Assembly: GCA_964606385.1 (NCBI GenBank)
Contig: CAZSFZ010000005.1
Span: forward strand, 40,650 to 104,649
Origin: an uncultured bacterium
GTDB lineage: Bacteria > Omnitrophota > Omnitrophia > Omnitrophales > Aquincolibacteriaceae
DNA: 64,000 nucleotides
Reading direction: 5' to 3'
A program made the translations under genes and the position numbers. This document shows positions 1 through 46,882 of this stretch, piece after piece. The notes under the pieces are model-generated. The model was not told where the DNA came from and made no database searches. It saw nothing but the letters and a program-made list of their open reading frames with translations. The number at the start of each line of letters is the position of its first letter. Positions within the stretch are counted from its first letter, which is position 1.

Positions 1-19
1 GGAAGAAAACCCCGTTTTT

Positions 20-29666: not shown

Positions 29667-31241
29667 ATGACCCAATCCAATCCCAAGCCCCGGGAGCAAT
29701 GGGGCACTCGTTTCGGACTTATCATGGCCATGGCCGCCAATGCCGTGGGTCTCGGCAACTTCCTCCGGTTTCCCGTCCAATGCGCCAATAACGGCGGCGG
29801 TGCTTTCATGATCCCGTACTTTGTGGCGTTCATCCTTCTCGGGATCCCGCTTTTATGGATCGAGTGGGGGATCGGCCGCTTCGGCGGGAAGTACGGTCAC
29901 GGCACCACGCCGGGCATGTTCCACTACCTTTGGAAACATCCTCTCGCGAAGTATATCGGGGCCATTGGCCTCATGATCCCGTTCGCCCTGGTGATCTATT
30001 ACAACTACATCGTGTCGTGGACACTAGGGTACAGCGTTTTTTCCTTCATCGGGAAGTACGGCGGCATCACGAACTTTCAGGGGATGGCGGATTTTCTGGC
30101 AGCTTACCAGGGAAAGGTCTCCAACCAGTATTTCCCGAGCATCGCGACCGCGTTCCTTTTTTTCTGCATTACCCATTTCTGCATGATCTGGATCATTTCG
30201 CACGGCGTTTCCAAGGGGATCGAGCGGCTCGCCAAGACCGCAATGCCTCTGATCTTTATCTTTGGGATCATCCTGGTGGTCCGGGTGCTTTTTCTGGGGA
30301 CGCCGGACCCCGCGTCGCCGGACAACAATATCGCGAACGGCTTCGGGTTTATCTGGAATCCTGATTTCAGCATGCTGAAACAGAGCAAAGTATGGCTTGC
30401 GGCAACGGGGCAGATCTTCTTCACTTTGAGTGTCGGTTTTGGCGCGATCCAGACCTACGCGAGTTATTTAAAGCCCAAGGACGATGTGGTTCTTTCGGGG
30501 CTTGCCACCGCCTCCACGAATGAATTTTGCGAGGTCATTTTGGGCGGGTCGATCGCGATCCCCGTGATGGTGGCTTTTTTCGGTTTGGCACAGACCCAGG
30601 CGATCGCGGCCGGCGGCGCGTTTGACCTCGGATTTTTTGCGATGCCCGTGATCTTTCAGAAAATGGCCTTCGGCAGTATCTTCGGGACGATCTGGTTCTT
30701 CCTGCTTTTTTTGGCTGGCGTGACCTCGTCGGTCGCGATGGCGCAGCCGATGATGGCCTTCCTTCAGGAGGAGTTCAAGATGACGCGCAAGGGGGCGGCC
30801 TGGATCGTCGGGACGATGACTTTTTTCTTTACGCTTCCCATCATCTTTTTCCTGAAGCACGGGTTTTTGAATGAGATCGATTTCTGGATCGGGACGTTCG
30901 GGCTCGTGGTGTTCGCGATCATCGAAGTGGTGCTTTTTATCTGGGTGTTTGGCTCCGAGAACGCCTGGAAAGAGATCAACTCCGGGGCCGATCTCCGGCT
31001 TCCCAAATTTGTTCTGCCGATCATGAAATATGTGACGCTGGCTTATTTGGTGGTCCTCATGGTGTTCTGGTTTATTCAGGACGGATGGGGAGTGCTCACC
31101 ATGAAGGGTGTTCCGCAAGCGGATTACCCTTATGTCTGGTTCGCCCGGTTCATGTTGATCGGGATCGGGGTGTGCATGGTTTTTCTGGTCCGACTTGCCT
31201 GGCAACGGCGCCATATCATCCAGCAGAGGATCCCCGAATGA
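29667..31241 (+). CDS. Sodium-dependent transporter, neurotransmitter:sodium symporter (SNF/NSS) family
   Basis: NAVGLGNFLRFPVQCANNGGGAFMIPYFVAFILLGIPLLWIEWGIGR (NSS TM1 signature); ~12 TM helices. Confidence 0.9.
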   Translation: MTQSNPKPREQWGTRFGLIMAMAANAVGLGNFLRFPVQCANNGGGAFMIPYFVAFILLGIPLLWIEWGIGRFGGKYGHGTTPGMFHYLWKHPLAKYIGAIGLMIPFALVIYYNYIVSWTLGYSVFSFIGKYGGITNFQGMADFLAAYQGKVSNQYFPSIATAFLFFCITHFCMIWIISHGVSKGIERLAKTAMPLIFIFGIILVVRVLFLGTPDPASPDNNIANGFGFIWNPDFSMLKQSKVWLAATGQIFFTLSVGFGAIQTYASYLKPKDDVVLSGLATASTNEFCEVILGGSIAIPVMVAFFGLAQTQAIAAGGAFDLGFFAMPVIFQKMAFGSIFGTIWFFLLFLAGVTSSVAMAQPMMAFLQEEFKMTRKGAAWIVGTMTFFFTLPIIFFLKHGFLNEIDFWIGTFGLVVFAIIEVVLFIWVFGSENAWKEINSGADLRLPKFVLPIMKYVTLAYLVVLMVFWFIQDGWGVLTMKGVPQADYPYVWFARFMLIGIGVCMVFLVRLAWQRRHIIQQRIPE

Positions 31242-31636: not shown

Positions 31637-34600
31637 ATGTTTAAAAAAAGTGGCCAAACCCATCGAAGAGGATCAAGAGCCATTGCTCTTGGCGTGGCGT
31701 TTGTGTTCACTCTGACCAGCATCACCTGGTCCACGCCGACTCTGGCTGCACCTTCGGATGTCTCCCTTGCCCCTGCCATGCCGATTGAGAAACTTTCCAT
31801 TCCAGCTGAGATGGGCTCTATAAGTAAAACTTATCGTGGATCGGGAGACGTGGCCCCGCACGACCGCATGGTCGTGCTCATCCAGGACGCGCATGCGGTG
31901 GTGGACGCCCAGGAAAACATCTCGAAGATCCTGGGGCATCTCGGTAAGGCCTACGGCATACGTCTCACAGCGCTTGAAGGCGCCAAGGGCCGGCTCGAAC
32001 CCATTCTCTTCAGGGCGTTCCCGGATCCGATCGTGAAACGAAATATTCTTGCCGGTTACGAGAACCGGGCTGAGCTTTCGGGGCCGGAGATGGCTTCAGT
32101 ATTCCAGGAAGAAGCTGCTGATTTCCGGGGGATGGAAGATTGGGCCCTGTATGAGCAGAACTATTTCGCGTATCTCCGGGGCCAGGAGAAAAAAGAAGCC
32201 CTTCTTAAAAAATGGAGCGGCTTCAAGGAAAAGCGCGACAAGGAACGCGCCAAGGTCTATGACGAAAAACTCAACGAATTCCAGGAAGCCCGGGAAAATT
32301 TTCTCGCGGAAAGATCTTCATTGCTTGACCTCTTGGTGTATCTGTCGAACTTTAAGCCGCTTTTTAGTTCCGGGGACTACAAGGAGCTTCCGGGTCTGAT
32401 CGATTCGATGGGATATGAAAAGGCCGGGAAATCCGAGGCTCTTGTCCCGATGGTGCGGAAGATCGCGGATGAATTCAAGGTGAAATACCTTCGCAGCCTT
32501 GGCGTCAAGACCGAGATGAATTTTTATAACCGCTATCAGGCTTTCATGACCGGACAGATCACGGCAGGCCAGATGCTTCAGTATCTCGTTCAGGTGGGCC
32601 GCGAACACGGGAAGAACATCAAGCTGACGCCGGCCCTCAAGAAACTGCTCGGACACGCGGAGCTCCTTTCCGAGATCCGCGGGAGCACCCTCTATGAAGA
32701 ATTGCAGCGCTTTCTGCCGGTGGTGGAGGCCAGTCTTCTCAAGACCCCGGAACAGAGAAAAATGGCGGATGTTTACGGGAAGCTTTTTCTCCTCCGGGAA
32801 CTGATCGAACTTGAGCTCACGCACGAAGCTTTGGAGAAATACCAAAAAGAACCCGACGCCTACCTGGACCTTTTGGGAGACCCGCAATTCAGGAAAGACC
32901 TTGTTCCCGCGTTGGAATTTTACCGTGCAGCGTTAGAGCGCGATCAGGCATTTCTTGCCAAGATCAACGCGATGATGGCGGATTCGAAACAAAACAACGC
33001 GGCGGTGGTCGCGGGCGGTTTTCATACGAACGGGATCGAACGTCTTCTGAAAAATAAGGGGATCTCCTACGCGGTCGTGACCCCGAAGATCGCCTCGCTG
33101 GCCGGTATCGAGAATTACGCCAAGGTCATGAAGGGGGACATTTCTTTCAAGGACGATCTCAAGACCACTTATTTCGACGCGCTGATGCGGCATGCGTCCA
33201 AAGCATTGATCGAGGCATTACCGATCCCGGACCGTGTCAGGACTTTAAAGACCTGGCGGGACAATCTGATCCGCGAACTCGCCAAGCAGGGCCGCATTAC
33301 GGAGGCGGGAAAATACCTGCCGTATATCGACGGGATCCTCCAAACCATGCCGGAAATGGTCAGCGCTGTGGGACCCGTGCGAACGAAGGAAGAAACGCTT
33401 GACCTTATCCGCAAAGAACTCGAGCGGTTCAAAAAAGATTCCCTGGAGCGGATCTGGAAGACCTTTGAGTTTCAACTGGGTGTCTTCACCGACGGTCTCA
33501 AGCAGCTGATCGCGAAGAAAGATCTGAATGAGAGCTCCGTTTCATTACTGCTTAATCGTGCCAGTCAGACCAAGCCGCAATTCGTGAGCTGGGTGCAGTG
33601 TCTTGATGGGGAGATAGGAGTGCTTGGCCAATCTGTTCCCATGGTTCCGGACACCTCCAATATTTTCGCGACCCGGCCGCAGATTCTCGATGAGCTCGGC
33701 CGTATTGCGCAGGGAACCCCGCTAGGGATCGCAGGTCCCGCCATAGCTGCGACAGCAGCACAGTTATCCAAAATCGGAATGGCAACAGAAGAGGCTGTCC
33801 GGAGCGGAGAGATCGGAACCCCGGAGCCTTCAGTAACCGGTCCGGCAGTGGAGGGGATCGTGGATCAATTGGCCGCGGGGGCGGACAAGCGTGTCGTGGC
33901 CGCGCAGCTCGCAAACGAGATGAACTCGCAACTGCCCGGGCGTATCGCTCCCACGTCCGATCTTCGCTCGGAGGCCCGGTCTGAATTACGGGCGGAATTG
34001 GAAAAGAGGCTTGGTGCGATGCGCTCCTTTGGGCGGAATGAAAGATTTGCCGGAGCCACGGTTAGGATTTATCTGGAGAAGAAGGGGGAATTCTACGAAT
34101 GGGTCGTGAAGGCGAGTGATGCGAATATTTTTCATTTTGTGATGCGCGAGAACCTTGCCGGAGAATTGGTGGGCTATTACCAGCGTTTTGAAGTGGACAG
34201 ACAAAGTAGGTCTGAGACGGCCCAAGGTGACATTCATACCGTAGGGGAATCCAAGGCCTTCGGGAACCACCATTTTTTTGCCGGGAAGCGCGATCAGAGT
34301 ATGGATCCGCTTCATTTCTCGGTTCGTCCGGGCAAGGACGCGAAGGGAGCTTTCGTCAATATCGAGGTCGAAAGCAAGGAAAAAGGCGTCGAAGTCCGGT
34401 GGGATGGATCGATGGAAAAGGTTCCGGAGAAGGTTCTCGAAGCCAAAAAGGAAGAAGTGCCGCATGATGACACCCCGACGGCTGAAACGGTTGAAACTCT
34501 AGAACCCGAAGAGAGCGTGACCAACCGGGAAGCCTTTGGCCCTGAGCAGTACACGCTTGCCGGCATAACACGGTCGCCCCGGACCATTTCGGTGGATGTC

Positions 34601-37600
34601 CCGGCGTTCCGCTTCAGGAACGGCCGGATCGAGCAGAACCCGGATTACCACAATCCGGCGCTTGAAGGCGATGAGTCTTTTTCCGAGATCGTGAGAGCGC
34701 TTGAAAAAGAGCTCAGCGGTTTGTCGCAGCAAGATCAAGCGGTTCTGACGCAGGCAGCCAACGGATGGATCTTGGGAGATGACGCGGTTTCGGATTGGAT
34801 CACTCACGCGGTTCATCTTTTGAACGAGCGGGATTATACGAAGCGGGATCTGGGACTGCGGGATTTTATAAGGCAATATTTGAAAGATTCCCTGCGTTAT
34901 CTGCGTGCCTCCGGGCAGGAACAGGCGCGGTTTGCGGAAGAACTTGCCAAACATTACAGGTATTTTTCCCGAACGCAGCTCCTTCGGGAAAAACCGCAGA
35001 GCAAATTTTCGGTTCTTCATGGCAGCGATCTGAGCCGATTGCGCATTGCCCCTGAAGGGGATTCGAGATCGTTGAGCCCCCATGTGATGACGATCGAGCC
35101 CATCGTCTACCAGTTCAACAAAGGCAGACGTTTCCGGGGGGAGGAGATACCGCCCGAGAAGTTGGTGTTCGCCAAGTGGAAGGGAAGGACCTTTCTTTTT
35201 TATACTTCGCGGACGCATGCCGTTGCGGGAGTGACCCAGCACACATGGAGGCACGCGGAAGCTTATTTTGGATTAAGGGGCGGTTGGCTCGTAAAACATA
35301 TGGGCGAAAGTTATCCGGAGAACATGGATGATCTTCCTCCGCAAATAGGGCAATTGCTGGATGAGATCATTTACTCGCCTGACGTTCGTACGCTTCAGAG
35401 TTCTGAGGCCTTCGTGAAACGCGCGGATGAACTGGGCCTGCTCAATTTTACGGATTGGAACGAACTCGCGACTATTTTTGAGGCAAGGTCGGCGGATGAT
35501 CTCAAACGGACCATGGGGAAGGTGCGGGGTGCGGGACTTGTTGACAAATTATCGGGCATGAAAGTAAACCCTCAGATTTTGCAAGCTCGGGATTACATGC
35601 TTGAACAGTTCAACAATCCTGATGCGGACGATGAATCTCCCACGCAGAATTTTGAAGAACCGGAAACCGAGACCTGGGATACTCCCACCCGCTCCGAGGT
35701 CCGGGATGCTCTTTCGTCTGAACAAAACATTGCCGGCAGTGTTGAGCGTATCGGTCAAGCCCTGTTAAAGGTGGCCCCGAAAAACCTTGCGGGGGTTGAT
35801 ATTGCGGAAGCTGCCGTGGCGGTTCAAGCGTTCCGGTCCGATATGGGCGGGAATGTCAAAGTGGTTTTTCAACCTGACCGTACTGCTGAAAATCCTCGCC
35901 CCAAGAAGGTGATGCTGAGTGACGGCGAAGGGGAGATTATTTTACTTCGCAGCCAGGATCTTCTCGACATGATCGACCTACGGTATGTGGGTCGGGAAAT
36001 GAATATCAAGGAAAACATAAGAGAAGAGGATATCCCCGCTTTCAAGCGTCCCGAAGTAGCGGAGATCCACCAGGAACTCAAGCTCTTCCTTTCCACGCTA
36101 ACGAGGAACCGGTTCCTTGAAATGGTGAGAAATATTTCAGGAGATAGCTCCCTGCAATGGGAGGATCTGGGCGGGGACGTTTCCTTGGATGCGTACATGG
36201 CGGGTTCGAATAAGCATGTTTTTAAGGTGACGTTGACGAGATCAGCCGGAGATGCCCTGAGCTTTGCGGTCGCCACCAAAATAGGCCGCACAGACGCTTC
36301 GATCGCTCAAACCGAAATCAACGAGATGGAAGTGCTGAATGACAGGCCCGAGCAGGTGACGCCGCGATTTGGAGGGGCGCGGCATACAAAAGGCCGCCGC
36401 TGGTATGTTGAGGAGTTCATTGAAGGAAAGACCGTAAGGGACTTGGAGAAGGAAAATCGGGTCACGGAGGATGTGCGTCGTGGTGTGATCTCGGCCCTGC
36501 TGTCGGTTTCGATGGGGCTTAAAGGCAAAATGCCGCGCGATATGCACAGCAATAATTTTGTCGTCCGCCAAAGCGATGGGCGCGTCATTATGGTGGATAT
36601 CGGCGTAAACCGGTTCAATGTGCTCGACCAAATTGATAATGCGATCCAGAAGGAAACGCAGGCGCATCACCGGATCGCCAGTCTTGCTGTGATCCTGGCG
36701 CAGTATGGATATGTGGAGGGTTCTCCGGAGCAGAATGATTTTATTTTCGACACTCTCATGAACGATGAGGACCTCCCGCCCGGAGAGGGAAAAAGATGGG
36801 TCGAAGGCGTTTATCAGAATTTGGCAGGCAGGGACGTCTCCGAAATTGCGGACTTTTTGCATAACCGGAAATGGCTGAATCACTTCCGCAGTATTTTTGA
36901 ATCCCGAGGGTATGGCGAGTATCCCACCGAAGAACAATCGAAAAGCGCATTGCGGTCTGTAGCTTCCATGCTGCAAACAAGCATTACCCGGTACGCGGAA
37001 GAGCGAGGAATGAAATCAGGCCAGCCCTCTGTTTCTTTGATTCCTTCCGTCGGGGAACGCTCAACCCGCTCTGAGGTCCGAACGGGATCCGACGGAGCAG
37101 ACGCGTCCATCCCGGGGAATGTCCGGACCCAGGCGCTGGCGGAGATCGGTGGGGTGATGATAAGCGCCCGTTCTTTGGCGGATATGGTTCCGTTTGTCCA
37201 GGATGCGATCCGGGTTGCTGTAGCCGGGAACAACTACCAAGGTTTGGAAGAATTTTCAGAGATCTTGACAGTTATGGTTCCTGCTTTAGACGGGCAGGAT
37301 CATGTTTTTATCGTGGCTCCGCGATTTCCGACAAAAGAAAACAAAGTCGGAACATTTCATCAGGAACTTGTCGAAAAGGCCGGATTGGGATCCAGAAAAA
37401 AGGAAATGATCCGGGCCTCCCTTGATTTTGCCCCAATGGGAGTCCTCGAGGAGATTTATCTTATTCCGAGTATTTCAGGATTGCGTGTGGGCGATGACGG
37501 AACGGTCGATGCTTCCTCTAAACTGCCCGAGCTGAAACAGTTCGGATCATTTCTTTTCGATGTTTTTTCCGGGATGGGATACACGCCGCAGGATCTGGAT

Positions 37601-40600
37601 AAGATCAAGTTGACTCTGGATAGTTCTGTACAGGACGCCTTGGGCGGGCGTGAGATCCGTTTGTCTCAGCTAGCGGAGGTGAGTGCCGAAGACGCTTCTC
37701 GTTCCGAATTGCGGCTGCGGGACATGTACGGCTATTTGATGAATAAAGTGCTGATGCCCGCGGTGCTGGCTGTGTGGCTGGCGTTGCCTTCGTTCGCGAC
37801 AGCTCAGCCTAACCAACCTTACAGCGCGCGTTTCGATCCTGCAATGGGCATGGAAGCCGGCGCTGAAAATCTTTACTCCGGTTATCGGGCGCTGAATGAA
37901 TTTGCGATCGATCCTGTGACCGGGAGCATTCCTTACCTTGAGAATAACCCGTTGGGCAGGTTCGTGAAATTGTTTGCTGTGGACCGTATAAGCGCTGACT
38001 TTTTCTGGGTGGCCCAGCATGAATTTTTCGGTCACGGGGCGCAGTCGCGCGAGGTCGGGGATTATGGATCTTCGTATCGTATGAATTTTGAGACACCGAG
38101 GCTGGAGTATTTCAACGGCTATAGGATCTTCGGTTGGTGGTCGGGGGCTGCGTCGCGAGGCGACCGGGAATATTCGACGGACGAATCTCTCGAAACTATT
38201 GCCGGCGGCATGGAAAGCACACAGGTCATGTCAGACTGGATCCGCTGGAACATGTTCCGTTACGGCGCAACGGCACAGGACGCGGTTCTTTATTATGTCT
38301 CAAAACTCGATCTGACGGATTACATTGAGACGACGCCCAGCCCGGCTTCTCGCGCGGGATTGATCGTGAAGGGTGGCGGTAACAGCGATGTGGATGCCTA
38401 TGGTGAAGAGATGACCGCGAAGTACGGGGAGGATGCGGATCTTTGGAGCGATATGGAGCGGGCCGCGCTTTGGAATGCGCTGGATCCCACGATTTGGATC
38501 TCGGCTTTCCGCCAGCTGGATTATGTAGCGCGGGGAACCCGGGAATTCCGGTTGCCCCGGATCCTGCCCTATACTGGAGCCAATCTGACGCCGCTGGGCC
38601 CCGAATATTATTTGGGAGCTCATTTTACGGCTGCGGAGCTTTACTATGACGTATATGGTAGAAAAGGCGTTGGGCCTGCGGGCGAATTTTATGGGGCGGG
38701 TCTTCGTGTTGGAGATATTGATCTGGGGAACGGCTACTCACTTGGGATGAACCTCGATGCGTGGGACCAGGAACGATTCGGCTTTGCGGTGAGGACAACT
38801 GTAAGCAAAAGTTTGAGTGATCGATTCAGGATCAGCGCTGGCGCCGATTATAAAACAGAAGGTTATCTGAAAGGGCGTCAAAGCGATGAGGGAGTCTCTG
38901 GCTTTATCAGTGTTCAAGGGGCTTTGTCGCGTCCGGAGGTTCGCTCGACCTCTGGCCGCTCGGAATTGCGCGAAGGAGAGGTAAGCGTCAAGGCTGGATT
39001 ATTTGATGCCGTGATCCAATTGAATGAAGCGGTTAAATATCTCATTATGCCCGCTAGCATGCTGGCGGGATTCTATTTGTGGAAAAGCTCGCTGCTCTTG
39101 CTCGCCAAAGCCTCCCTATTGCCTGAAGGAACGCTCATGATCGTGGCCAGTTTCACCACAGCATTTCTCGGTGTTGTATTAGGTGCTAATGCGATGCTTC
39201 GACTGCTGTTTAATCCGGAGAGGACCACGATCTATCGGGGCATTCATGGGAGCGCGGATACCATTCTTGATGTTCTCAGACGCGGTGACATTGTTGAAGC
39301 GCCCAAACCAAGTGACGAGATCGCCTGGAGCGAAGTGATAGGGCATTTTGGAGGCAAACCCAGCTCCTCTCTCAAATCCATGACGCCACAAAAACGATGG
39401 GCTGAATATTACACGCTATTTTCCGCTTACGGGCAGAAGGATGTTTCGCGGGGCGAAAGATTTCTTAATGCGTTCAAAGAAATCTTTGCCAGAAAATTCA
39501 TGAAAGATCAGCGTATTAAGATCGTCACGACCCCCGAGGAGGGCGCGCAACTGCTTTCGGAGTTGCAGGAGCAGGGCGGAATTAACGGAGAAATAGGCTT
39601 GCTTGAAACGGTGCCGGGCGTGCCCAACGCGCAAAGCCGTATGCTTTACTGGAATCCGTTCGGTGGACATATCGAAATTGCGCTTGCTTACGGTGTGACG
39701 CCGAAAGAGATCTCGACGGTGGAGATCTTTATCCCGCGCGAAGGTAACGAGCATCTCGGTTTAGAAGCCTTATCCGAAAGAGCGGCTGGGAGTGTTCGTT
39801 CCGAGTTGCGGGGAATGATTTCACGCATGACGCTGGGATTAACGATGGCGGCGATCCTGTCGTTCTCGGCGCTTTCGGCGGAAGGTGCGCAGAAGCGTGA
39901 CGCGAAGACGAGTCAGATACAGACGGAACTTGTTTCGATGGGATATTTGCAAGACAGCGATGTCCAAGGGAACTATGGGTTCTACGGACCTAAAACGAAA
40001 GCGGCGGTTACGCGGCTTCAGACCGATCTAAAAAAGACTGGCCATTATAAGGGGCCGATCGATGGCGACTATGGCCCCGGGACTGATCGGGCGCTCAGAG
40101 CTTGGCAGCAAGCTCAGGGAACCGCTCCGGCCGTGCCGGAGGCGGCTGTGCCTGTCGAAGGGGATCAGGATGTTATCGATGCTCTTGAAGATCTCAGGGG
40201 CCTTCGGCGTGATGCTCCCGAACATATATTTAATCTGCTGTTAGACAGCGGTCAAAGGCGTCTTTCATTTGACGCGAAATCAGAGCTTGTTTCACAAATG
40301 AGTTTTCAAGAGGTCTTGGAAAAAGTTTCGGTTCGCTCCGGGCTTGCGGCATCTGAATTTGAAAGGATCGCGCAGAAATATGATGTCCCGGTTGAATCCC
40401 TGATCGCCCGCGGCTTTAAAGAGAATCCCAAATTTGATCCGTTGGTCAGCGGGCCGGACGGAAGGGATATCGGATTATTCCAGGTAAGGATCGACACGGT
40501 TCGGGACGGGAGGTTTTTCCCGCTGCTCAAGGATCTTGCCGTTCAGGAGGGGTTGCTCAAAGGGGCCGAAGCGAAAGCAAGTTCGCGTTCGATCACGGAT

Positions 40601-43600
40601 GCCAAGCTGAAACAGATCCTCAAAGATTCTTCCATCAATGCGGAAATGAGTATCATGATCCACAAGACTTATTCTCAAGAAGTGGCAAGGCTGAAAACTG
40701 TTACCGTCACGGGAGCCGCCGGGATCGGAAGCCAAGCCCTTGAAGTTTATTTGTCGGGGGATTATTTAGAAAAAGGGCAGGCTGCTTATAACATCGGGGT
40801 CGGGAATTTCCAGAAGATCGTGAATACCGTTTCGGTCTCGGGGATTTCGGGATTGCCGGCCTCACTGGCAAAAGTCGCCCGGCGCGGGCAGGCTTACGCA
40901 GCGGAAATAGAGGGATTCCAGGAAGTTCTGGAGGCTACCAACAATGTCCCTTCGACCGGCCAAGATCTTTTAGCCATGAATACCCGTGGCCGCTCCGAGG
41001 TGAGGACTGTGGATCAAAGTGAAATTGCAGAACGTGTCGCGGCGAAGCATCCGTCGTCCAGCCGGTTTTCGAAAGAACCGATCTTGGGTTTTGAGATCAT
41101 GAGCGTGGATTGGAAAAATATTCCCAAGGCGATTCGGGACCGGCTTGGGAAAGTGGATCAAACCTACAAGGAGGGAGTCGAAAAAGTTCTCGCGGCGAAT
41201 ATCGGGGGATTCATTGCGCTTCAGATGAAAGGGGACCAGCCGGATTTTTATATCGTTAGCCCCCGGGTGGCGCAGGGGAAATACCAGAAAACCGTGATCG
41301 GTTATGAGGGGTATGACAAACTGGTCCGGGCGATGAAAGCGGGTGTGGTCGAGATGATCCGCATGTCGGATCTCGGCTATTCAAAAGACGAATCCGTTTC
41401 CATTCAAGTGGATTGGGGGAGCGGTCCCGAGAAGCAGACGAAGCCCGCGGGTCAGGATGCCTATCTCGCCCATGACGGGAAACAGTGGTACATGCTGAAT
41501 GTCAACGTCGAGGGGCTTCCCATCAGTTATGTTCCCGTTTCAGCGTCCGGATCTGCGGCGAATCGTGTCGATCTGATGATCAAAGGACTGATCGATGTGA
41601 TCGCGCGCCGGCAGAATTTGTCCGATGAAGACCGGAAAAAAGTTGAGATGATTGCGGAACTTGCCAAAACGGCGCATTCGGGCCAGAAACGGAAGAACGG
41701 GGATCCGTATTTCCGGCATCCGCTCGAAATGGCGTGGTACATGATGACGCGATTCGGTAATTATTCGCCGGTTGAGTTTCAAGTCAATCTTCTGCATGAC
41801 ACTCGCGAGGACCAGGCCGAATTTTATGAAGCGATCAAAGCGATCCTGGATGATATGTTCGCGCAGTTGGAAAAACTGGGAGATTCCGCCCAAACCGAAC
41901 AGGATCGCAGGAATTACAACTTGATCCGACTTGGCGTGAGGCTTTTAACGAAGATCGTGCCTGAGGAGGTCCGGGGCGCGGATGGGACTGTCAAATGGCA
42001 AATTACCCACAAGGATGTGAACGGAAAGGATGTTACGAGGACTTTTGATAGCGAGGCCGATGCCGATGCGGCCGGACAGATCCAATACTACACGCAAATG
42101 TTGAATCCGCACCGCTATTTCAGAAAAGAGATCATTGCCGCGGGGATTTCCGAGGATGAGGCCGCGCGGATCCGCGGTCGGTACGCGGATTATGACGATG
42201 CCTTTATTCGCGGGATCCAGCAAGCCAAATTAAGTGACAGGATCGTTAACACACGGGACCTGATGAACCTTTTCAACCCGCAAGTCGAGCAGACCGATTC
42301 GATCCGGAAATTTCCCGCGCGGATGATCGGTAAAACGCTGGATTGGATGATCCCGAATCTGGTTGAAGCGGAAAATGCCGGGCAAGGGCTGCATCCCGAT
42401 GATCGCCGGATGTTCTATGAGGGATTTGTGGGGATCCTTGTGGATTACGCCAATCTTGATACGGGATTAAATCCCATGGTCAAGCCGCTGAAAGACGCCG
42501 CCCTCGCGACGCTCCGGGATCCCCGCTTGCAAGTCGGTATTGAGATCGCGGGAATGCGCCGGGAGGTCGACGAGGCGATACAACATCGTTCCGAAGTCCG
42601 TGCGGGAGAGGTTCAGCCGCTCCGGCTGAACGAGCAAAAAGAGAATGAGTTTTATGAGAGGTGGGGAGAGTCATTAAAGAAGAGCGGCCATCGTTCACCT
42701 CAAGCCCTTATCAATATTGCGCAACATATCCGCGAAAGCCGGCAGGTCGTAAGCTATGCGGATTTTCTTGGGCAAATGAAGGGGATGCAGCCGAAGCTGG
42801 CAGCGGCCTTGGGGACCACGGGATCTTATGCGGTTGTTTGGGATGAGCCGGCGGAAGGCGAGGCGGATCACATGAAATTGCACAAATCCCGCCGCTGGGC
42901 GTGGTCGCTTATCCGTGATGGCTTGCGCGCGCCGTCAGCCGAGATCTATGGGAACGAGCTCGGTAAGGCTCGCGGCGTCTCAACATTTGTGATCGCGGAT
43001 GACGCGAGTTATAGCGGAACTCAGATCCGGGAAACGATTGAAAGGATCTCAAAGGCGAATCCGAGGGCTCAAATCACTATAGCTGTTCCCTACATGACAA
43101 GCCGGGCCGAACGCGTGATACGGTCCCGGAGAGGGCTTCCGGAGGGCGTTTCCATTAGAGTTCTGGAACATGAGACCATGCCGACGCTTTCTGAGATTCT
43201 CACGAAGTCCGAACGCGACCTTTTTGCCGATAACCGTACTGCATTCGGGACGGTGACGATCGATGGGAAATCCTACGATGTGCTGCTGACGGCCGTGACG
43301 CTCTTCGATCATAAGGTCGCTGATTCTTGGTCGGTTTATCAGCGTCTCGCACAATTCTATGATCCAGTGACGCCGCCCTACAAGAATGAGCGGAGCGCGT
43401 ATTATCAGGAAGAATCAGGAACGCTTGCTGCCGAAGAAGTTCCGGTGCGGGCGGAGGTGCTAGAGCCTGAATTTTATAAAACAGAGACAAAGTTCCAGCT
43501 TGTGGATTCGAGCGCGCGACCGGGGGAACCGGAAGCCCAAAAGGTTCCCACGCTGCGAGCGTTTGAAGTGTTTAATCTGGATCTGACCACAGAGGAACAG

Positions 43601-46600
43601 CGGAATGTTGTAGAACGGATCCAGAACGGACAAGCCCCGAATGTGATGCTCTTGACCCGTGAGGCGTTGCTTAGCAAAGGAGCGTTCACGGCGGATACAA
43701 AAGCGGGAATTTTCCCTGCGGAGCTGAGGGGAACGGAGTTGGCATTGGGGGATAACGGAAAAGCTTTGTTCCAGACCTTGTATGTGAATCTTTTGGATCC
43801 GAGGCTGCAGGGTGAAGGAAATATCCGTGTCAGCGTCGCCGGTTTGTTCCGAATTAGAGTTGACCGGGCCGATATCACGGGATTTTCAGAACCTCTTTAC
43901 CTGGTGATTCTCAATAAAAATCGTCGGACTCCCGAAGGCCTTTTGACCGTTGGAGCGATCGGCGGAGCTTATCAAACCCAAGGTGTGGCGGCGCCGCAGG
44001 ATATACGCGGACTTATAGAAAAACCGGATTCCGAAGCTTTCCTGCAATGGTTCGTGACGGGACAGGGGCGGGAAACCAACCCTTTGAGAGAATTTGAAGA
44101 AGAGGTCCTTGGCGCAGCCGGCGACCAGGTAAATCTTTTTGACGAGCTTCCCACAGCCCTTCGTAATTTCAAGACCCGTTCGGAAGCACGGGAGCAAATG
44201 GTAGACATGGATGTAGGTAAAACATACGCGATGACGCTTGGCTCGAATGGCGTATGGGAAAAGAAAGAAGTCGGGGCGGATGTATGGCCCAAGAATGCGG
44301 AAGATATCAAGCCGGGCCGTATGGGGATGATCGATCTGACCGCGGCAGGTCATCGGCCGATCGGTTTTGAACTGAATTTTTGCAGCGCGTTGGTTCTTTT
44401 TACCCCGACCGCAGTCTATTATGCCCATTCGTTTTTTGAGAATCTGAATAATCTGCACGATACCAACCGGTTGATCCGAAATCAGTTTTACGGCCGCGAA
44501 CAGCAAGTCACCGCGATGTTAGGATGGGGGACGGATTATCAGCGGATGCCGGCTGAGAAACAGGAGAAGCTTGTGTCGCAGCAAAAGGCCTTTGGCGACA
44601 TTCTGTCCGAAGGATTTAATACATTATCCCTGGAGCCCGGTGAAAATATCATCCTAAAAGTCGCTTTTGATCCCAAAACACAGACGCTCTATGCGCGGCA
44701 GGAAAAACCGGTGGGCCGTTCTGAAGCGAGAGAAGAGGATGCAACCTCGAGCGTTCTCCGGGTCAAAGGGGACAAAATACCGATCCTGGTGCGTGATTTT
44801 ATCGGAACGCAGATCAAATCGGGCACGAGTGCCCTTGAGATGGGCATCGGGTCGGGGGCCTTGACACGCGATCTCGCCGAAGGGGCCTCCCGATTGAAGG
44901 ACGTTCAATTCGTTGGCGTGGATATCAATCCGGAAGCGGTGCAGATGTCCCGGTCGCTGCTCGGCAAATACAGGAATGTGCGCGTCTTGGAAAGTGATCT
45001 CTTCTCAGCCTTCACAAAGGGAGAAAAATTCGATGTGATTTTCTGGAATCCTCCCTGGTCCTCCCAGGGCGAGGCCGGCACGCTGGCGCTCGCAAAATCC
45101 GATCCCGGCTTCGAGACTCTTAGCCGCTTCTTTAAAGAAGCACCCATGTTTTTGAAGCCTGGGGGAAAAGTGTTCCTGATCATGCCTGTCGAGGCCATGG
45201 AGGAGATCTGGGAGGATGCCTCCGCGAAGTTCGAGATCGATAGAAAAGGCTGGGAGAAAACCAAGAATTCCAACATTGGAATTTTTGAGTTGAAACCTAG
45301 GGCGCTTGAGCAAGTTCAGGCGTCGGATGCCGTGATTTCATCGGATTCCGATTGGCGGGAGGTTTTTCAGGACAATAGTCGTCCGTTATTTGTGGAAGTT
45401 GGCGTGGGAGACGGCAAGAAAAGCATGTTGGTCGCTGAAAGCCGTCCGGACGCGAATTTCATCTTGATTGAACCGGAGGCAAGCGCTTTCCAAAAATTGC
45501 AGCAGACGGTTCGTGATTCGGGATTAACTAATATCCGGATCGTACGGGGTCAGGACGGCGACCTGTTTGATCTTCAAAAGGGAAGCGGCTTTATCGACCT
45601 GATCTATTGCGTGGCGCCGTTCGTGAACACGCCGTGGCCTTATTTCTTTTCCGAAGGTCCGAAGGCGCCCACATACCAGCGTGCATTGAGCTTATTGAAA
45701 AGCCGCGGGGAGATACTGGTCATGCCCGATGAAACGCTTGCTGGCGAGTGGTACGACCATTTTGAAGGGCAATACCCGAATGCCGAGATCGTGCCGCAAA
45801 GCCGTGTTTTCCCGGGATTGAATGCCGCCCTGGAACGCTATCATCAACAAGTGCTCGATTTTAAATATAGCGACCCTATTGTGATCACACGGCGCTCAGA
45901 GAATCGCGCAGTTTCAGGTTTTTGGTCTTCTGTGGAGTCGAAAGATATTGTCGCGGAAGCTCGGGACAAGGGGCCGGACGCGGCACGTGCGATGTTTGAA
46001 CGATCAGGCCGCACGGAATTGGGAAAGATTGGTGATGCTTACGATGCGGGAAGTACGGATTTGATGTCGGTTTTGAGAGATGCGCCGTCAATGTCCGCGG
46101 CGCTTCCCGAGGCAGTCGCGCAGCTATCCGGCCGTATGGGGAATGATGCCAATTTGTTCAACTGGCCCGCCCTGCAAGCCGGCCTTGAGAATATCCTGAT
46201 GCCGACGGCGATGGCGCTCGAAACCGTGAACGCGGATGTGGCGAATATTGTTCCCGCCCAGATGAAGCTTCTCATCGATACGTTGGCAAATATCAAAGGA
46301 TCGCTCACGATCGGTCTGGACCTCGGAACGGGGAAGGATGCGGAGATCGGCAGCGCGGTTTTGGAACAGCTTATCAAAGCGATCGGCGAGCGCAGCGGCA
46401 TCGTCAATGAACTTGCCGTGAGCGGTAAGCTGCCCGGGCCGGCGCGTCAAACCCTGAAATCAAGGGGTATCAATGACCGGCCGATCCGGCCGAACCAGTC
46501 CTTTATTCCGATCAATGCGCAGGATGCTGTTCCGCTGGTCATGAGTTCGAGCGCGGCGAACGGTGTGATCCATCAAGTATTCTATCCGATCGTCGGCGAT

Positions 46601-46882
46601 CGAGGAGCCGTGACCGATACGCTTGTGAACGATTACGCGAATCTCCTGGAAGTGGTGGCGGCGATCCACTGTGCGGATATCATTTCACGTCAGCCCAATT
46701 TGCTGAAGCAGCCCGAGCTTTTGAAAGCCGAACTTCTTAAGACGCTTTTCCGTCAGGAGCAGGGCGCTGTTGAGAACCTGATCCAGGTGCGCGCGGGAGG
46801 ACGCGGATTTACGGTCTCGAGCGCGGCGGTGAAGGTCTATCTCGAGATGATGGCGAAGCAGTCGGTCGAGAAGGCAGCGTAA
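31637..46882 (+). CDS. Giant secreted/membrane multidomain protein (5081 aa). N-terminal signal/TM; kinase-like (~36120-36650); internal signal-like segment (37739-37808) followed by HEFFGH metallopeptidase motif (38018-38035); TM pair (~39040-39210); second internal signal-like segment (39815-39890) followed by PG_binding_1 domain (~39900-40110) and SLT-like region; SpoT-type HD domain (~41650-41830); PRTase-like motif (~42985-43025); HemK-like methyltransferase (~44790-45290, NPPW); TrmB-like methyltransferase (~45370-45600)
   Basis: 15.2-kb stop-free frame. Motifs read: AIALGVAFVFTLTSITWSTPTLAAPS; KVTLTRSAGD...EEFIEG...PRDMHSNNFVV...MVDIG (kinase-like); AQHEFFGHG; YGFYGPKTKAAVTRLQ...DGDYGPGTDRALRAWQ; AHSGQKRKNGDPYFRHPLEMA...LLHDTRED; FVIADDASYSGTQI; LEMGIGSGALT...FDVIFWNPPW; LFVEVGVGDGKKSMLVAESRPDANFILIEPE. 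Ten RSE[VLA]R motifs mark the boundaries. Confidence 0.85.
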   Translation: MFKKSGQTHRRGSRAIALGVAFVFTLTSITWSTPTLAAPSDVSLAPAMPIEKLSIPAEMGSISKTYRGSGDVAPHDRMVVLIQDAHAVVDAQENISKILGHLGKAYGIRLTALEGAKGRLEPILFRAFPDPIVKRNILAGYENRAELSGPEMASVFQEEAADFRGMEDWALYEQNYFAYLRGQEKKEALLKKWSGFKEKRDKERAKVYDEKLNEFQEARENFLAERSSLLDLLVYLSNFKPLFSSGDYKELPGLIDSMGYEKAGKSEALVPMVRKIADEFKVKYLRSLGVKTEMNFYNRYQAFMTGQITAGQMLQYLVQVGREHGKNIKLTPALKKLLGHAELLSEIRGSTLYEELQRFLPVVEASLLKTPEQRKMADVYGKLFLLRELIELELTHEALEKYQKEPDAYLDLLGDPQFRKDLVPALEFYRAALERDQAFLAKINAMMADSKQNNAAVVAGGFHTNGIERLLKNKGISYAVVTPKIASLAGIENYAKVMKGDISFKDDLKTTYFDALMRHASKALIEALPIPDRVRTLKTWRDNLIRELAKQGRITEAGKYLPYIDGILQTMPEMVSAVGPVRTKEETLDLIRKELERFKKDSLERIWKTFEFQLGVFTDGLKQLIAKKDLNESSVSLLLNRASQTKPQFVSWVQCLDGEIGVLGQSVPMVPDTSNIFATRPQILDELGRIAQGTPLGIAGPAIAATAAQLSKIGMATEEAVRSGEIGTPEPSVTGPAVEGIVDQLAAGADKRVVAAQLANEMNSQLPGRIAPTSDLRSEARSELRAELEKRLGAMRSFGRNERFAGATVRIYLEKKGEFYEWVVKASDANIFHFVMRENLAGELVGYYQRFEVDRQSRSETAQGDIHTVGESKAFGNHHFFAGKRDQSMDPLHFSVRPGKDAKGAFVNIEVESKEKGVEVRWDGSMEKVPEKVLEAKKEEVPHDDTPTAETVETLEPEESVTNREAFGPEQYTLAGITRSPRTISVDVPAFRFRNGRIEQNPDYHNPALEGDESFSEIVRALEKELSGLSQQDQAVLTQAANGWILGDDAVSDWITHAVHLLNERDYTKRDLGLRDFIRQYLKDSLRYLRASGQEQARFAEELAKHYRYFSRTQLLREKPQSKFSVLHGSDLSRLRIAPEGDSRSLSPHVMTIEPIVYQFNKGRRFRGEEIPPEKLVFAKWKGRTFLFYTSRTHAVAGVTQHTWRHAEAYFGLRGGWLVKHMGESYPENMDDLPPQIGQLLDEIIYSPDVRTLQSSEAFVKRADELGLLNFTDWNELATIFEARSADDLKRTMGKVRGAGLVDKLSGMKVNPQILQARDYMLEQFNNPDADDESPTQNFEEPETETWDTPTRSEVRDALSSEQNIAGSVERIGQALLKVAPKNLAGVDIAEAAVAVQAFRSDMGGNVKVVFQPDRTAENPRPKKVMLSDGEGEIILLRSQDLLDMIDLRYVGREMNIKENIREEDIPAFKRPEVAEIHQELKLFLSTLTRNRFLEMVRNISGDSSLQWEDLGGDVSLDAYMAGSNKHVFKVTLTRSAGDALSFAVATKIGRTDASIAQTEINEMEVLNDRPEQVTPRFGGARHTKGRRWYVEEFIEGKTVRDLEKENRVTEDVRRGVISALLSVSMGLKGKMPRDMHSNNFVVRQSDGRVIMVDIGVNRFNVLDQIDNAIQKETQAHHRIASLAVILAQYGYVEGSPEQNDFIFDTLMNDEDLPPGEGKRWVEGVYQNLAGRDVSEIADFLHNRKWLNHFRSIFESRGYGEYPTEEQSKSALRSVASMLQTSITRYAEERGMKSGQPSVSLIPSVGERSTRSEVRTGSDGADASIPGNVRTQALAEIGGVMISARSLADMVPFVQDAIRVAVAGNNYQGLEEFSEILTVMVPALDGQDHVFIVAPRFPTKENKVGTFHQELVEKAGLGSRKKEMIRASLDFAPMGVLEEIYLIPSISGLRVGDDGTVDASSKLPELKQFGSFLFDVFSGMGYTPQDLDKIKLTLDSSVQDALGGREIRLSQLAEVSAEDASRSELRLRDMYGYLMNKVLMPAVLAVWLALPSFATAQPNQPYSARFDPAMGMEAGAENLYSGYRALNEFAIDPVTGSIPYLENNPLGRFVKLFAVDRISADFFWVAQHEFFGHGAQSREVGDYGSSYRMNFETPRLEYFNGYRIFGWWSGAASRGDREYSTDESLETIAGGMESTQVMSDWIRWNMFRYGATAQDAVLYYVSKLDLTDYIETTPSPASRAGLIVKGGGNSDVDAYGEEMTAKYGEDADLWSDMERAALWNALDPTIWISAFRQLDYVARGTREFRLPRILPYTGANLTPLGPEYYLGAHFTAAELYYDVYGRKGVGPAGEFYGAGLRVGDIDLGNGYSLGMNLDAWDQERFGFAVRTTVSKSLSDRFRISAGADYKTEGYLKGRQSDEGVSGFISVQGALSRPEVRSTSGRSELREGEVSVKAGLFDAVIQLNEAVKYLIMPASMLAGFYLWKSSLLLLAKASLLPEGTLMIVASFTTAFLGVVLGANAMLRLLFNPERTTIYRGIHGSADTILDVLRRGDIVEAPKPSDEIAWSEVIGHFGGKPSSSLKSMTPQKRWAEYYTLFSAYGQKDVSRGERFLNAFKEIFARKFMKDQRIKIVTTPEEGAQLLSELQEQGGINGEIGLLETVPGVPNAQSRMLYWNPFGGHIEIALAYGVTPKEISTVEIFIPREGNEHLGLEALSERAAGSVRSELRGMISRMTLGLTMAAILSFSALSAEGAQKRDAKTSQIQTELVSMGYLQDSDVQGNYGFYGPKTKAAVTRLQTDLKKTGHYKGPIDGDYGPGTDRALRAWQQAQGTAPAVPEAAVPVEGDQDVIDALEDLRGLRRDAPEHIFNLLLDSGQRRLSFDAKSELVSQMSFQEVLEKVSVRSGLAASEFERIAQKYDVPVESLIARGFKENPKFDPLVSGPDGRDIGLFQVRIDTVRDGRFFPLLKDLAVQEGLLKGAEAKASSRSITDAKLKQILKDSSINAEMSIMIHKTYSQEVARLKTVTVTGAAGIGSQALEVYLSGDYLEKGQAAYNIGVGNFQKIVNTVSVSGISGLPASLAKVARRGQAYAAEIEGFQEVLEATNNVPSTGQDLLAMNTRGRSEVRTVDQSEIAERVAAKHPSSSRFSKEPILGFEIMSVDWKNIPKAIRDRLGKVDQTYKEGVEKVLAANIGGFIALQMKGDQPDFYIVSPRVAQGKYQKTVIGYEGYDKLVRAMKAGVVEMIRMSDLGYSKDESVSIQVDWGSGPEKQTKPAGQDAYLAHDGKQWYMLNVNVEGLPISYVPVSASGSAANRVDLMIKGLIDVIARRQNLSDEDRKKVEMIAELAKTAHSGQKRKNGDPYFRHPLEMAWYMMTRFGNYSPVEFQVNLLHDTREDQAEFYEAIKAILDDMFAQLEKLGDSAQTEQDRRNYNLIRLGVRLLTKIVPEEVRGADGTVKWQITHKDVNGKDVTRTFDSEADADAAGQIQYYTQMLNPHRYFRKEIIAAGISEDEAARIRGRYADYDDAFIRGIQQAKLSDRIVNTRDLMNLFNPQVEQTDSIRKFPARMIGKTLDWMIPNLVEAENAGQGLHPDDRRMFYEGFVGILVDYANLDTGLNPMVKPLKDAALATLRDPRLQVGIEIAGMRREVDEAIQHRSEVRAGEVQPLRLNEQKENEFYERWGESLKKSGHRSPQALINIAQHIRESRQVVSYADFLGQMKGMQPKLAAALGTTGSYAVVWDEPAEGEADHMKLHKSRRWAWSLIRDGLRAPSAEIYGNELGKARGVSTFVIADDASYSGTQIRETIERISKANPRAQITIAVPYMTSRAERVIRSRRGLPEGVSIRVLEHETMPTLSEILTKSERDLFADNRTAFGTVTIDGKSYDVLLTAVTLFDHKVADSWSVYQRLAQFYDPVTPPYKNERSAYYQEESGTLAAEEVPVRAEVLEPEFYKTETKFQLVDSSARPGEPEAQKVPTLRAFEVFNLDLTTEEQRNVVERIQNGQAPNVMLLTREALLSKGAFTADTKAGIFPAELRGTELALGDNGKALFQTLYVNLLDPRLQGEGNIRVSVAGLFRIRVDRADITGFSEPLYLVILNKNRRTPEGLLTVGAIGGAYQTQGVAAPQDIRGLIEKPDSEAFLQWFVTGQGRETNPLREFEEEVLGAAGDQVNLFDELPTALRNFKTRSEAREQMVDMDVGKTYAMTLGSNGVWEKKEVGADVWPKNAEDIKPGRMGMIDLTAAGHRPIGFELNFCSALVLFTPTAVYYAHSFFENLNNLHDTNRLIRNQFYGREQQVTAMLGWGTDYQRMPAEKQEKLVSQQKAFGDILSEGFNTLSLEPGENIILKVAFDPKTQTLYARQEKPVGRSEAREEDATSSVLRVKGDKIPILVRDFIGTQIKSGTSALEMGIGSGALTRDLAEGASRLKDVQFVGVDINPEAVQMSRSLLGKYRNVRVLESDLFSAFTKGEKFDVIFWNPPWSSQGEAGTLALAKSDPGFETLSRFFKEAPMFLKPGGKVFLIMPVEAMEEIWEDASAKFEIDRKGWEKTKNSNIGIFELKPRALEQVQASDAVISSDSDWREVFQDNSRPLFVEVGVGDGKKSMLVAESRPDANFILIEPEASAFQKLQQTVRDSGLTNIRIVRGQDGDLFDLQKGSGFIDLIYCVAPFVNTPWPYFFSEGPKAPTYQRALSLLKSRGEILVMPDETLAGEWYDHFEGQYPNAEIVPQSRVFPGLNAALERYHQQVLDFKYSDPIVITRRSENRAVSGFWSSVESKDIVAEARDKGPDAARAMFERSGRTELGKIGDAYDAGSTDLMSVLRDAPSMSAALPEAVAQLSGRMGNDANLFNWPALQAGLENILMPTAMALETVNADVANIVPAQMKLLIDTLANIKGSLTIGLDLGTGKDAEIGSAVLEQLIKAIGERSGIVNELAVSGKLPGPARQTLKSRGINDRPIRPNQSFIPINAQDAVPLVMSSSAANGVIHQVFYPIVGDRGAVTDTLVNDYANLLEVVAAIHCADIISRQPNLLKQPELLKAELLKTLFRQEQGAVENLIQVRAGGRGFTVSSAAVKVYLEMMAKQSVEKAA

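Follow-up and report, generated by a model that had tools for sequence, protein, structure and literature searches.

A giant Omnitrophota gene encoding protein-sized cassettes separated by a recurrent RSExR pentapeptide: a candidate bacterial polyprotein

Is a bacterial chain of several thousand residues, assembled from unrelated modules, used as one protein or as many? The question is raised by a giant open reading frame (ORF), G2, in a 64-kb stretch of DNA from an uncultured bacterium (contig CAZSFZ010000005.1), the whole of which is called the window here. G2 (31637..46882, forward strand) starts with ATG, has no internal stop codon and encodes 5081 amino acids followed by a stop, exactly as claimed in a preliminary description of the window. 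A conserved N-terminal region (the head) is followed by about ten unrelated, protein-sized cassettes and then by a conserved C-terminal region (the tail), with the pentapeptide R-S-E-x-R (RSExR) at every junction. The preliminary description was correct that unrelated enzyme and cell-wall modules are concatenated in one giant ORF. It saw these modules as set apart by long regions of unknown function, missing the key features of the gene: RSExR, the TIKI-fold head and a C-terminal signature. We propose that G2 is a punctuated polyprotein that would be cut at RSExR, possibly by its own TIKI-like head, and we give this explanation an even chance of being right.

RSExR occurs 12 times in G2 and eight times in a second giant ORF of the window, G1, against about 0.1 expected in each (2000 shuffles, maximum 3). 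Over all six frames of the window there are 29 matches, 20 of which lie inside G1 and G2. Across 150 proteins bearing the head, 589 instances were counted against 12 expected, none of them within the head itself. An unbiased scan for enriched patterns of the form 'abc-x-e' ranked RSExR top in most sufficiently long ORFs of 80 genome loci, and the variants RAExR, RPExR and RTExR found in such loci point to a general form R-[S/A/T/P]-E-x-R. The ratio of observed to expected instances is 1.3-1.6 in ORFs of 100-600 residues and 26-40 in those above 1000 residues. Consecutive motifs are a median of 344 residues apart (interquartile range 233-535), approximately the size of an ordinary protein. RSExR is a linear motif, a 16-bit pentapeptide whose flanks are nearly information-free, save that residue -1 tends to be small and the residues afterwards tend to be acidic. 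Its fourth residue in G2 is mostly L, V, A or M, and it lies in a short hydrophilic linker, within a hydrophilic dip of about +/-10 residues.

A motif of this kind could also be a hinge between domains, or a place for docking or modification (for example for a chaperone, secretion motor or kinase), in a giant multi-enzyme protein that stays whole in the membrane or on the surface. We regard this alternative as unlikely. It agrees with a recent preprint that models each such giant as one long chain in the membrane, with transmembrane (TM) helices numbering up to the hundreds (Nielsen & Lui 2026, 10.64898/2026.06.07.730766). Each ORF has one N-terminal signal peptide and one C-terminal signature, as for one transported unit, and the Ser beside an acidic residue in the motif could be a modification site. 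However, passive linkers would not be expected to keep a 16-bit pentapeptide between information-free flanks over thousands of divergent proteins.

The family to which G2 belongs was defined by its head. The first ~650 residues were compared exhaustively with 1.84 billion cluster representatives by HMMER. At E<=1e-3 there were 7227 matches, of which 5069 passed E<=1e-10 and 722 passed E<=1e-30. Nearly all of the top 150 matches have the head at the extreme N-terminus, and most of these proteins are 2000-7700 residues long. Members named by source are proteins from metagenome-assembled genomes (MAGs) of Candidatus Omnitrophota, each titled after one recognised domain. When each GTDB species was represented by one genome, a scan yielded 117 loci, with up to five paralogues per genome. 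Among the best 80 of these loci, the titles that name a taxon all give Omnitrophota save one 'uncultured Planctomycetales', and many say 'uncultured bacterium'. Judged by these names, G2 comes from Candidatus Omnitrophota, in agreement with the affiliation suggested in the preliminary description.

The closest relative, P0005, is a protein of 5705 residues encoded on an independent 171-kb contig, with a head 86% identical to that of G2 and the same tail and junctions. Homology between the two falls into blocks that break at motifs (G2 residues 758-1815, 2020-2445, 3112-3674 and 4351-5081), and cassettes 3, 5-6 and 8-9 of G2 are missing or replaced in P0005. For cassette 3 the difference is a precise indel of one cassette plus one separator. 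P0005 in turn has a 28-residue linker with RSENR between its HemK-like and TrmB-like methyltransferases that is precisely missing in G2. At the shared junctions the motif is conserved where its flanks have diverged, and substitutions leave R-x-E-x-R intact: just ahead of the tail, for example, G2 has RSENR and P0005 has RAETR. Family-wide, 26.7% of 531 high-scoring segment pairs from BLAST start within 10 residues of a motif, compared with 4.8% at random, and 19.6% end there, compared with 4.1%. The internal cassettes (n=597) fall into 455 clusters, 382 of them singletons, and recurrent families are found anywhere from the first to the 16th place in the order. A further member from groundwater, P0004 (2139 residues), whose head is homologous, has RSE[LI]R at four sites and carries other cargo: an RNA 3'-phosphate cyclase, a guanylate kinase and an HD domain.

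The same comparisons bear on whether the ORF is real. The window is metagenome-derived, and several genes might have been collapsed into one ORF by an assembly or frameshift error. The chance of such an artefact is practically negligible. The architecture of head, cassettes and tail recurs in thousands of independent assemblies, one of them the single-cell genome of Ca. Omnitrophus fodinae, which is among the head-bearing loci. P0005 keeps the frame, the junctions and the tail on its own contig, and this agreement with a giant from a related MAG, a comparison the preliminary description had called for, makes chimerism unlikely. The GC content of G2 matches that of the neighbouring genes, and its composition is even along the whole ORF.

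Indels between close relatives that comprise exactly a cassette plus separator, or a linker plus separator, are also what might be seen if the DNA itself carried a signal for exchanging cassettes, a recombination site akin to integron attC, with RSExR as its by-product. The shuffled cassette order is consistent with this, as are codon-family biases observed in 240 motif instances (the window and loci L005-L084). The first Arg is encoded by CGY in 78% of instances (39% background) and Ser by TCN in 96% (69% background), and G is favoured at the wobble position of codon 4 regardless of the amino acid. These biases possibly result from common descent of linkers carried with cassettes, from codon-pair effects or from a weak nucleotide-level signal; that of Ser may arise because a single step leads from TCN to codons for Ala, Thr and Pro, which are tolerated here. 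Nevertheless, wobble positions carry only 0.26-0.28 bits, leaving at most short interrupted stretches of 2-5 nt as conserved DNA. Both Glu codons are used at background frequency, and the last Arg, which takes both Arg codon families, is also near background. Since codons vary within RSExR, its conservation is essentially at the peptide level. The variants likewise hold the peptide skeleton R-small-E-x-R, and no recombinase conserved nearby was found among the 80 loci. A role as a DNA repeat or recombination signal is therefore unlikely, and we consider it very improbable as the explanation of the motif.

The preference for G in codon 4 is relevant to another possibility, that G2 is an operon in disguise, its parts translated separately from internal starts at or near the motif, or released by mRNA processing there, with the long ORF incidental. 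Codon 4 is of start type (ATG, GTG or TTG) in 99 of the 240 instances, against 66 expected, and a Met follows shortly after the motif in some cassettes. But 59% of motifs lack a codon of start type, and GCG, ACG and TCG show the preference for G at the wobble position as well. Sequences resembling a Shine-Dalgarno site are depleted upstream (7% vs 15%), and Met is not enriched within 10 residues after the motif (18.2% vs 18.1%). As to mRNA processing, an Rfam search found no RNA family, ribozyme or intron. Finally, a stop-free frame of 15 kb in thousands of genes argues for selection for read-through translation. We rejected internal initiation on the grounds of the unenriched Met, the absence of start-type codons at most motifs and the Shine-Dalgarno depletion, and we find the operon explanation as a whole scarcely credible.

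Long family members that have no RSExR carry a different sharp pentapeptide, [GA]-[AS]-S-L-G, the flanks of which are information-free too. It occurs about once per 1000 residues, against 0.023 expected, in a minority clade that includes P0045, P0052, P0053, P0076, P0087 and P0090. The two motif types exclude each other: 88 of 109 long members have R[SATP]ExR, 15 have [GA][AS]SLG, none has both and six have neither. The heads of the [GA][AS]SLG giants mostly cluster, with a nearest neighbour of the same type in 11 of 15 cases. Mutually exclusive, clade-specific punctuation is the pattern expected of a co-evolving trans-acting reader, and a specific reader is not what an uncleaved chain with structural linkers would imply.

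A candidate for the reader is the head itself. Its AlphaFold2 model, made from a 20-sequence alignment, had a mean predicted local distance difference test (pLDDT) score of 77 and a predicted template modelling (pTM) score of 0.66. In the model a long helical insertion interrupts a beta/alpha core, and the predicted fold is that of a TIKI/TraB/erythromycin-esterase-type hydrolase, an alpha/beta fold with a core parallel beta-sheet flanked by helices. The head contains a D84-x-H86 motif, E114 28 residues further on and H463 in the sequence GGFH. H86, E114 and H463 are invariant in 145 of 145-146 heads, while position 84 is D in 141 and N in four. The 2His/2Glu catalytic set consists of a His-Glu pair and a second His (PMC6254334); going by its residues, the head appears to have a set of this type in which Asp84 replaces the first Glu. 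The spacing of 28 between H86 and E114 is the same as in Bcr135 and RRSP. Compared with the TIKI/TraB/PrgY/ChaN/erythromycin-esterase superfamily, the head differs in its ~280-residue helical insertion, in the Asp at the first Glu position, in giving no profile match and in being fused to the front of giant cassette arrays. The superfamily includes site-specific endopeptidases (TIKI and RRSP) as well as esterases and a heme-binding protein, so that a protease function for the head is plausible, not proven.

Targeting signals are found both at the ends of the giants and at their internal junctions. A hydrophobic N-terminal signal or anchor stretch is present in 112 of 127 complete heads. The tail, the last ~320 residues of G2, aligns with the extreme C-terminus of several other giants and closes with a signature of about 25 residues that is shared by 114 of 152 family proteins (L at -15, A at -9, I/V at -5 and the end [AS]-A-COOH). 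Family proteins without it are mostly contig-truncated fragments, and none of 14 ordinary genes of the window has it. The AlphaFold2 model of the tail was poor (pLDDT 59), and Foldseek found no meaningful match to it in the PDB. The signature may be a secretion signal, a degradation tag or something else; its [AS]-A end recalls ssrA-type ...LAA tags or C-terminal secretion signals.

The internal signal peptides mentioned in the preliminary description are indeed present in G2. Classical signal peptides begin straight after the separators at residues 2022 and 2721 (signal-like segments after residues 2026 and 2725), and TM helices follow the separator at residue 2441 (after residue 2445). Other giants provide many further clear examples, two of them canonical twin-arginine (Tat) signals that stand right after separators deep in the chain, at residue 4690 of P0065 and residue 664 of P0145. 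The former reads RSEAR SEKLMSRRRFLAASVLGV..., with SRRRFLAA. Sec and Tat signal peptides placed straight after motifs would make little sense in an intact chain, and the same applies to cytoplasm-type enzymes dependent on S-adenosylmethionine (SAM) or nucleotides that alternate with exported modules.

We therefore return to the polyprotein explanation. RSExR would be the recognition site of a site-specific endopeptidase that converts the chain into separate proteins. The TIKI-type head would be the most economical candidate for this protease, whether it works in cis or, in trans, on other giants made by that cell. After cleavage, any cassette that opens with a Sec or Tat signal peptide would be targeted separately from the rest. 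Cleavage might take place in the cytoplasm of the producer, at its envelope or in a prey cell.

Several points weigh against this explanation. Cleavage of the giants at RSExR is something that we infer from sequence. The head gave no sequence-profile match in Pfam, NCBIfam or the PDB, even when a profile of the head alignment was compared with the PDB, and its superfamily holds esterases and heme-binding proteins in addition to proteases. No dedicated protease or exporter is conserved beside the gene among 80 loci. The mutually exclusive dialects could also follow from shared ancestry alone, six long members carry neither motif type, and several paralogues in some genomes have no clear punctuation. 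The codon biases within RSExR hint at an additional nucleotide-level or common-descent component. The excess of signal peptides after the motif is statistically modest (20 vs 11.5 +/- 3.4; 11 vs 5 in the 10-20 residue bin) because most cassettes have no signal peptide, and for that reason it is not used as a main argument. Lastly, there is a puzzle of topology: a head with a Sec-type signal may be extracytoplasmic, whereas the internal signal peptides require a cytoplasmic cut before export.

The features of G2 are collected in Table 1, together with those of the surrounding window that are discussed below.

Table 1. Coordinates of G2, its parts and associated features in the 64-kb window.
Feature	Residues	Nucleotides	Strand	Remarks
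G1, second giant ORF		2..17764 (5914 aa over 20..17764)	+	at least 5914 aa; frame open at left window edge
Tal-Pgi fusion		24683-27556	+	transaldolase-phosphoglucose isomerase, 957 aa
SNF-family sodium symporter		29667-31241	+	immediately 5' of G2
G2		31637..46882	+	5081 aa plus stop
Signal peptide/anchor of head	1-38	31637..31750	+	basic n-region, hydrophobic core, TLA-AP; helix 10-30 in model
Head	~50-650	31784..33586	+	TIKI/TraB/erythromycin-esterase-fold hydrolase-like (predicted); helical insertion ~170-450
Head residue D84	84		+	
Head residue H86	86	31892-31894	+	
Head residue E114	114	31976-31978	+	
Head residue H463	463	33023-33025	+	
Tandem separators RSEAR-SELR	777-785	33965..33991	+	
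Cassette 1	786-1351	33992..35689	+	no known domain; homologues elsewhere in the order of P0005, P0014, P0016, P0069, P0072
Separator RSEVR	1352	35690..35704	+	
Cassette 2	1357-1810	35705..37066	+	protein-kinase-like; HSNN 1637, DIG 1654
Separator RSEVR	1811	37067..37081	+	
Cassette 3	1816-2021	37082..37699	+	no assigned domain; missing in P0005
Separator RSELR	2022	37700..37714	+	
Cassette 4	2027-2440	37715..38956	+	Sec-type signal peptide straight after separator; HEFFGH; beta-rich C-terminal part
Signal peptide of cassette 4				LRDMYGYLMNK-VLMPAVLAVWLALPSFATA-QP
Separator RSELR	2441	38957..38971	+	degenerate RPEVR just before
Cassette 5	2446-2720	38972..39796	+	opens with hydrophobic TM-like helices
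Separator RSELR	2721	39797..39811	+	
Cassette 6	2726-3118	39812..40990	+	signal peptide GMISRMTLGLTMAAILSFSALSA-EG; PG_binding_1; lytic-transglycosylase-like short motifs
Separator RSEVR	3119	40991..41005	+	
Cassette 7	3124-3650	41006..42586	+	N-terminal ~180-aa domain plus RelA/SpoT-type HD
N-terminal domain of cassette 7	~3126-3308	41006-41560	+	
Separator RSEVR	3651	42587..42601	+	
Cassette 8	3656-4180	42602..44176	+	PRTase-CE-like (weak) plus SMODS-associated NUDIX
Separator RSEAR	4181	44177..44191	+	
Cassette 9	4186-4360	44192..44716	+	no assigned domain
Separator RSEAR	4361	44717..44731	+	
Cassette 10	4366-4752	44732..45892	+	HemK/PrmC-like (NPPW) plus TrmB-like methyltransferases
Separator RSENR	4753	45893..45907	+	
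Tail	4758-5081	45908..46879	+	last ~25 aa (46805-46879) are the family C-terminal signature, ending SVEKAA-COOH

Profile searches of the kind proposed in the preliminary description, made with Pfam and NCBIfam, found most of the domains that it had named. Each Pfam family (PG_binding_1, HD_4, PRTase-CE, Sa_NUDIX, Methyltransf_31/MTS and Methyltransf_4) is present in G2 as a single copy, and none is dominant. PG_binding_1 was recovered in cassette 6 (Pfam 8.8e-13). The SpoT-type HD domain of cassette 7 is supported by HD_4 (3.7e-4, below the gathering score) and by NCBIfam spoT_relA (2.2e-9). Both methyltransferases of cassette 10 were likewise found, the HemK/PrmC-like one with NPPW at residue 4471 (MTS 9.8e-13, PrmC 1.1e-17) and the TrmB-like one with Methyltransf_4 (2.2e-11) and TrmB (5.6e-12). 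The supposed PRTase-like module of cassette 8 gave a weak PRTase-CE match (1.8e-4), which is below the gathering score, and is adjoined by a clear SMODS-associated NUDIX domain (Sa_NUDIX, 4.2e-13). All enzyme cassettes are far under the NCBIfam equivalog cut-offs (PrmC 64 bits vs 199, TrmB 45 bits vs 113), so that they are divergent paralogues and not housekeeping enzymes.

For the remaining modules the evidence is thinner. A kinase-like fold in cassette 2 is indicated by three independent matches to the same catalytic-loop stretch, all of them weak to moderate (Bud32 0.003, PAK4 0.002, PD-T4-6 kinase 9.5e-7). The supposed lytic-transglycosylase-like (SLT) region of cassette 6 is indicated by the short motifs VES (2919), GLFQ (2946) and AYNIG (3050), and profile searches gave it no support. 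An HExxH metallopeptidase motif, also claimed earlier, is absent from the whole G2 protein by regular expression; the site in question reads HEFFGH (HExxxH), and no peptidase profile matched the region even at E<=10. Cassette 4, to which it belongs, had neither a profile nor a PDB match. At permissive thresholds Pfam gave nothing for the head, cassettes 1-5 and 9, the tail or sub-regions. In homology searches by indexed words, cassettes 7-9 and the head each gave only four matches. The N-terminal ~180-residue domain of cassette 7, which is without annotation, occurs as tandem duplicates with ~40% identity in P0001-P0003. These are ordinary-sized metagenome proteins with hydrophobic, signal-like N-termini, without RSExR and without Pfam annotation.

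Cargo of this type raises the possibility that G2 is a MARTX-like secreted multi-effector toxin, cut at RSExR only in prey or host. This would be a sub-variant of the polyprotein explanation, differing in the place and purpose of cleavage. The chain would be exported by means of the head signal, the C-terminal signature or both, the released effectors would modify nucleotides, RNA and protein, and cassettes with signal peptides would be re-exported by the Sec/Tat machinery of the victim against its own envelope. Published accounts portray Omnitrophota as nanobacteria that depend on a host or are predatory, and connect giant ORFs with this way of life. Sa_NUDIX, PRTase-CE, a PD-T4-6-type kinase and a mad2-type methyltransferase are cargo of the conflict-system type, the enzyme cassettes are well short of housekeeping equivalog scores, and the content is hyperdiverse and shuffled in the manner of polymorphic toxins. 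RRSP, a MARTX effector, has the fold of the head, and the conserved C-terminal signature may correspond to a C-terminal secretion signal. Against this, RTX repeats, a C80 cysteine protease domain, a recognisable translocation region and adjacent secretion-system genes were not found, delivery is entirely hypothetical and other giants carry many metabolic-looking cassettes. We consider the toxin variant distinctly improbable.

The topology puzzle divides along the same line. If the signal peptide of the head exports the chain, the SAM- and nucleotide-dependent cassettes would be outside the cytoplasm, which fits the MARTX-like variant with processing in the prey cell. If the chain were instead cleaved in the cytoplasm of the producer, the internal Sec and Tat signals would be readily understood, but the head, if exported, would have to act before its export to serve as the protease.

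G2 lies among housekeeping genes. Upstream in the window are NadE, ArgS, MiaA, HflX, a Tal-Pgi fusion, an amidase and an SNF transporter, while a citrate transporter, PFOR and an ADP-forming acetyl-CoA synthetase lie downstream. The SNF-family sodium symporter is the commonest upstream neighbour (12 loci), which points to a stable chromosomal site and not to a mobile-element context. The Tal-Pgi fusion is conserved 5' of G2 orthologues in eight loci. Over 80 loci, the conserved neighbours were all housekeeping genes in synteny (SNF transporter, Tal-Pgi, HflX and others), with no protease or exporter among them.

Giant ORFs take up much of the genome in Omnitrophota, and in the window G1 and G2 together cover 33 of the 64 kb. 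The N-terminus of G1, possibly with a head, lies outside the window. All eight RSExR of G1 come after residue 2240, it has about 11 TM-like segments, and its C-terminal end is AIGKSA. The segments between its motifs correspond to whole domains of stand-alone type, such as HEAT repeats in 267 residues, DUF218 in 204 residues and NUDIX. The groundwater contig that encodes P0004 (L001/L002 1-1283) has another large gene upstream, of more than 2299 residues and ending at the contig edge; the two are separated by GlyQS, PPDK, a sigma-70 factor and a PRTase. A second large gene near P0004 suggests that giants tend to occur several per genome neighbourhood.

The polyprotein explanation may be extended beyond G2, though we do so tentatively and with more doubt than confidence. 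Omnitrophota might express much of their accessory proteome as chromosomal polyproteins, in which a peptide 'comma' (R-S-E-x-R or [GA][AS]SLG) is read by a TIKI-fold endopeptidase encoded in the same ORF, giving at least ten separately targeted proteins per translation. If so, they would use an expression strategy known from viruses, and the resemblance of giant genes to concatenated average proteins would be explained. To our knowledge, polyprotein expression as a general strategy has not been described in cellular prokaryotes. Confirmation of cleavage would thus establish viral-style polyprotein expression in a cellular organism and a new pair of site-specific protease and recognition site. 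RSExR already allows giants to be cut objectively into units for structure prediction and annotation, and makes their processing a direct question for proteomics. The head family, thousands of clusters at 50% identity without annotation, is nominated as a candidate for the processing enzyme.

How does G2 compare with systems already described? The function of giant genes in Omnitrophota, the subject of several papers (including Seymour et al. 2023), has been called poorly understood. Post-translational cleavage of these giants was suspected earlier, and missing cleavage points blocked their subdivision (West-Roberts et al. 2023 preprint). The preliminary description held the architecture of G2 to be one not known before, a view overtaken by the June 2026 preprint on 'multi-enzyme metabolic cluster' giants in Omnitrophota, with methyltransferase, NUDIX, HD, GNAT and similar domains (Nielsen & Lui 2026, 10.64898/2026.06.07.730766). 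G2 resembles these in its phylum, in a single ORF tiled with unrelated Pfam domains, in its N-terminal signal peptide and scattered TM segments, and in its high diversity. At 5081 residues, half the 10,000-residue threshold of that catalogue, G2 as such is a smaller example of the multi-enzyme giants already described. The published accounts treat these as single chains and report neither a separator motif, nor a conserved head or tail, nor cleavage points. No mention of the separator motif, the second dialect, the TIKI-fold head family or the C-terminal signature was found in the Omnitrophota giant-gene papers cited here or the openly searchable literature (which excludes subscription-only sources). 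Searches there for RSELR and RSEVR returned irrelevant software names only, and 'polyprotein' was not found paired with Omnitrophota.

In its working, G2 would come nearest to MARTX toxins or viral polyproteins. Among characterised bacterial proteins, MARTX toxins are similar to G2 in being several thousand residues long, in their array of unrelated modules and in their shuffled content, and an in-built protease cuts them at short sites between modules. The MARTX effector RRSP shares the TIKI fold with the head of G2. The MARTX cysteine protease domain cleaves after Leu. G2 differs in having a strict pentapeptide separator where MARTX has a loose X-Leu site, and RTX repeats and a Peptidase C80 domain were undetected by Pfam in any segment. 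Further differences are the Sec signal on the head, the signal peptides on some cassettes and the several paralogues per genome; in addition, processing of G2 is here proposed from sequence.

The organisation of G2 also resembles in pattern that of viral polyproteins, such as those with picornavirus 3C or potyvirus NIa sites. These too are composed of protein-sized units, with a short recurrent site and a protease encoded in the same ORF, for which the head is the candidate in G2. The candidate protease in G2 has a predicted TIKI fold in place of a chymotrypsin-like or papain-like one, and its cleavage of the chain is proposed. G2 is also unlike viral polyproteins in residing on a cellular chromosome among housekeeping genes and in carrying hyperdiverse, shuffled cargo. 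It does have the generic mark of a polyprotein, a short recurrent site at every junction of protein-sized units.

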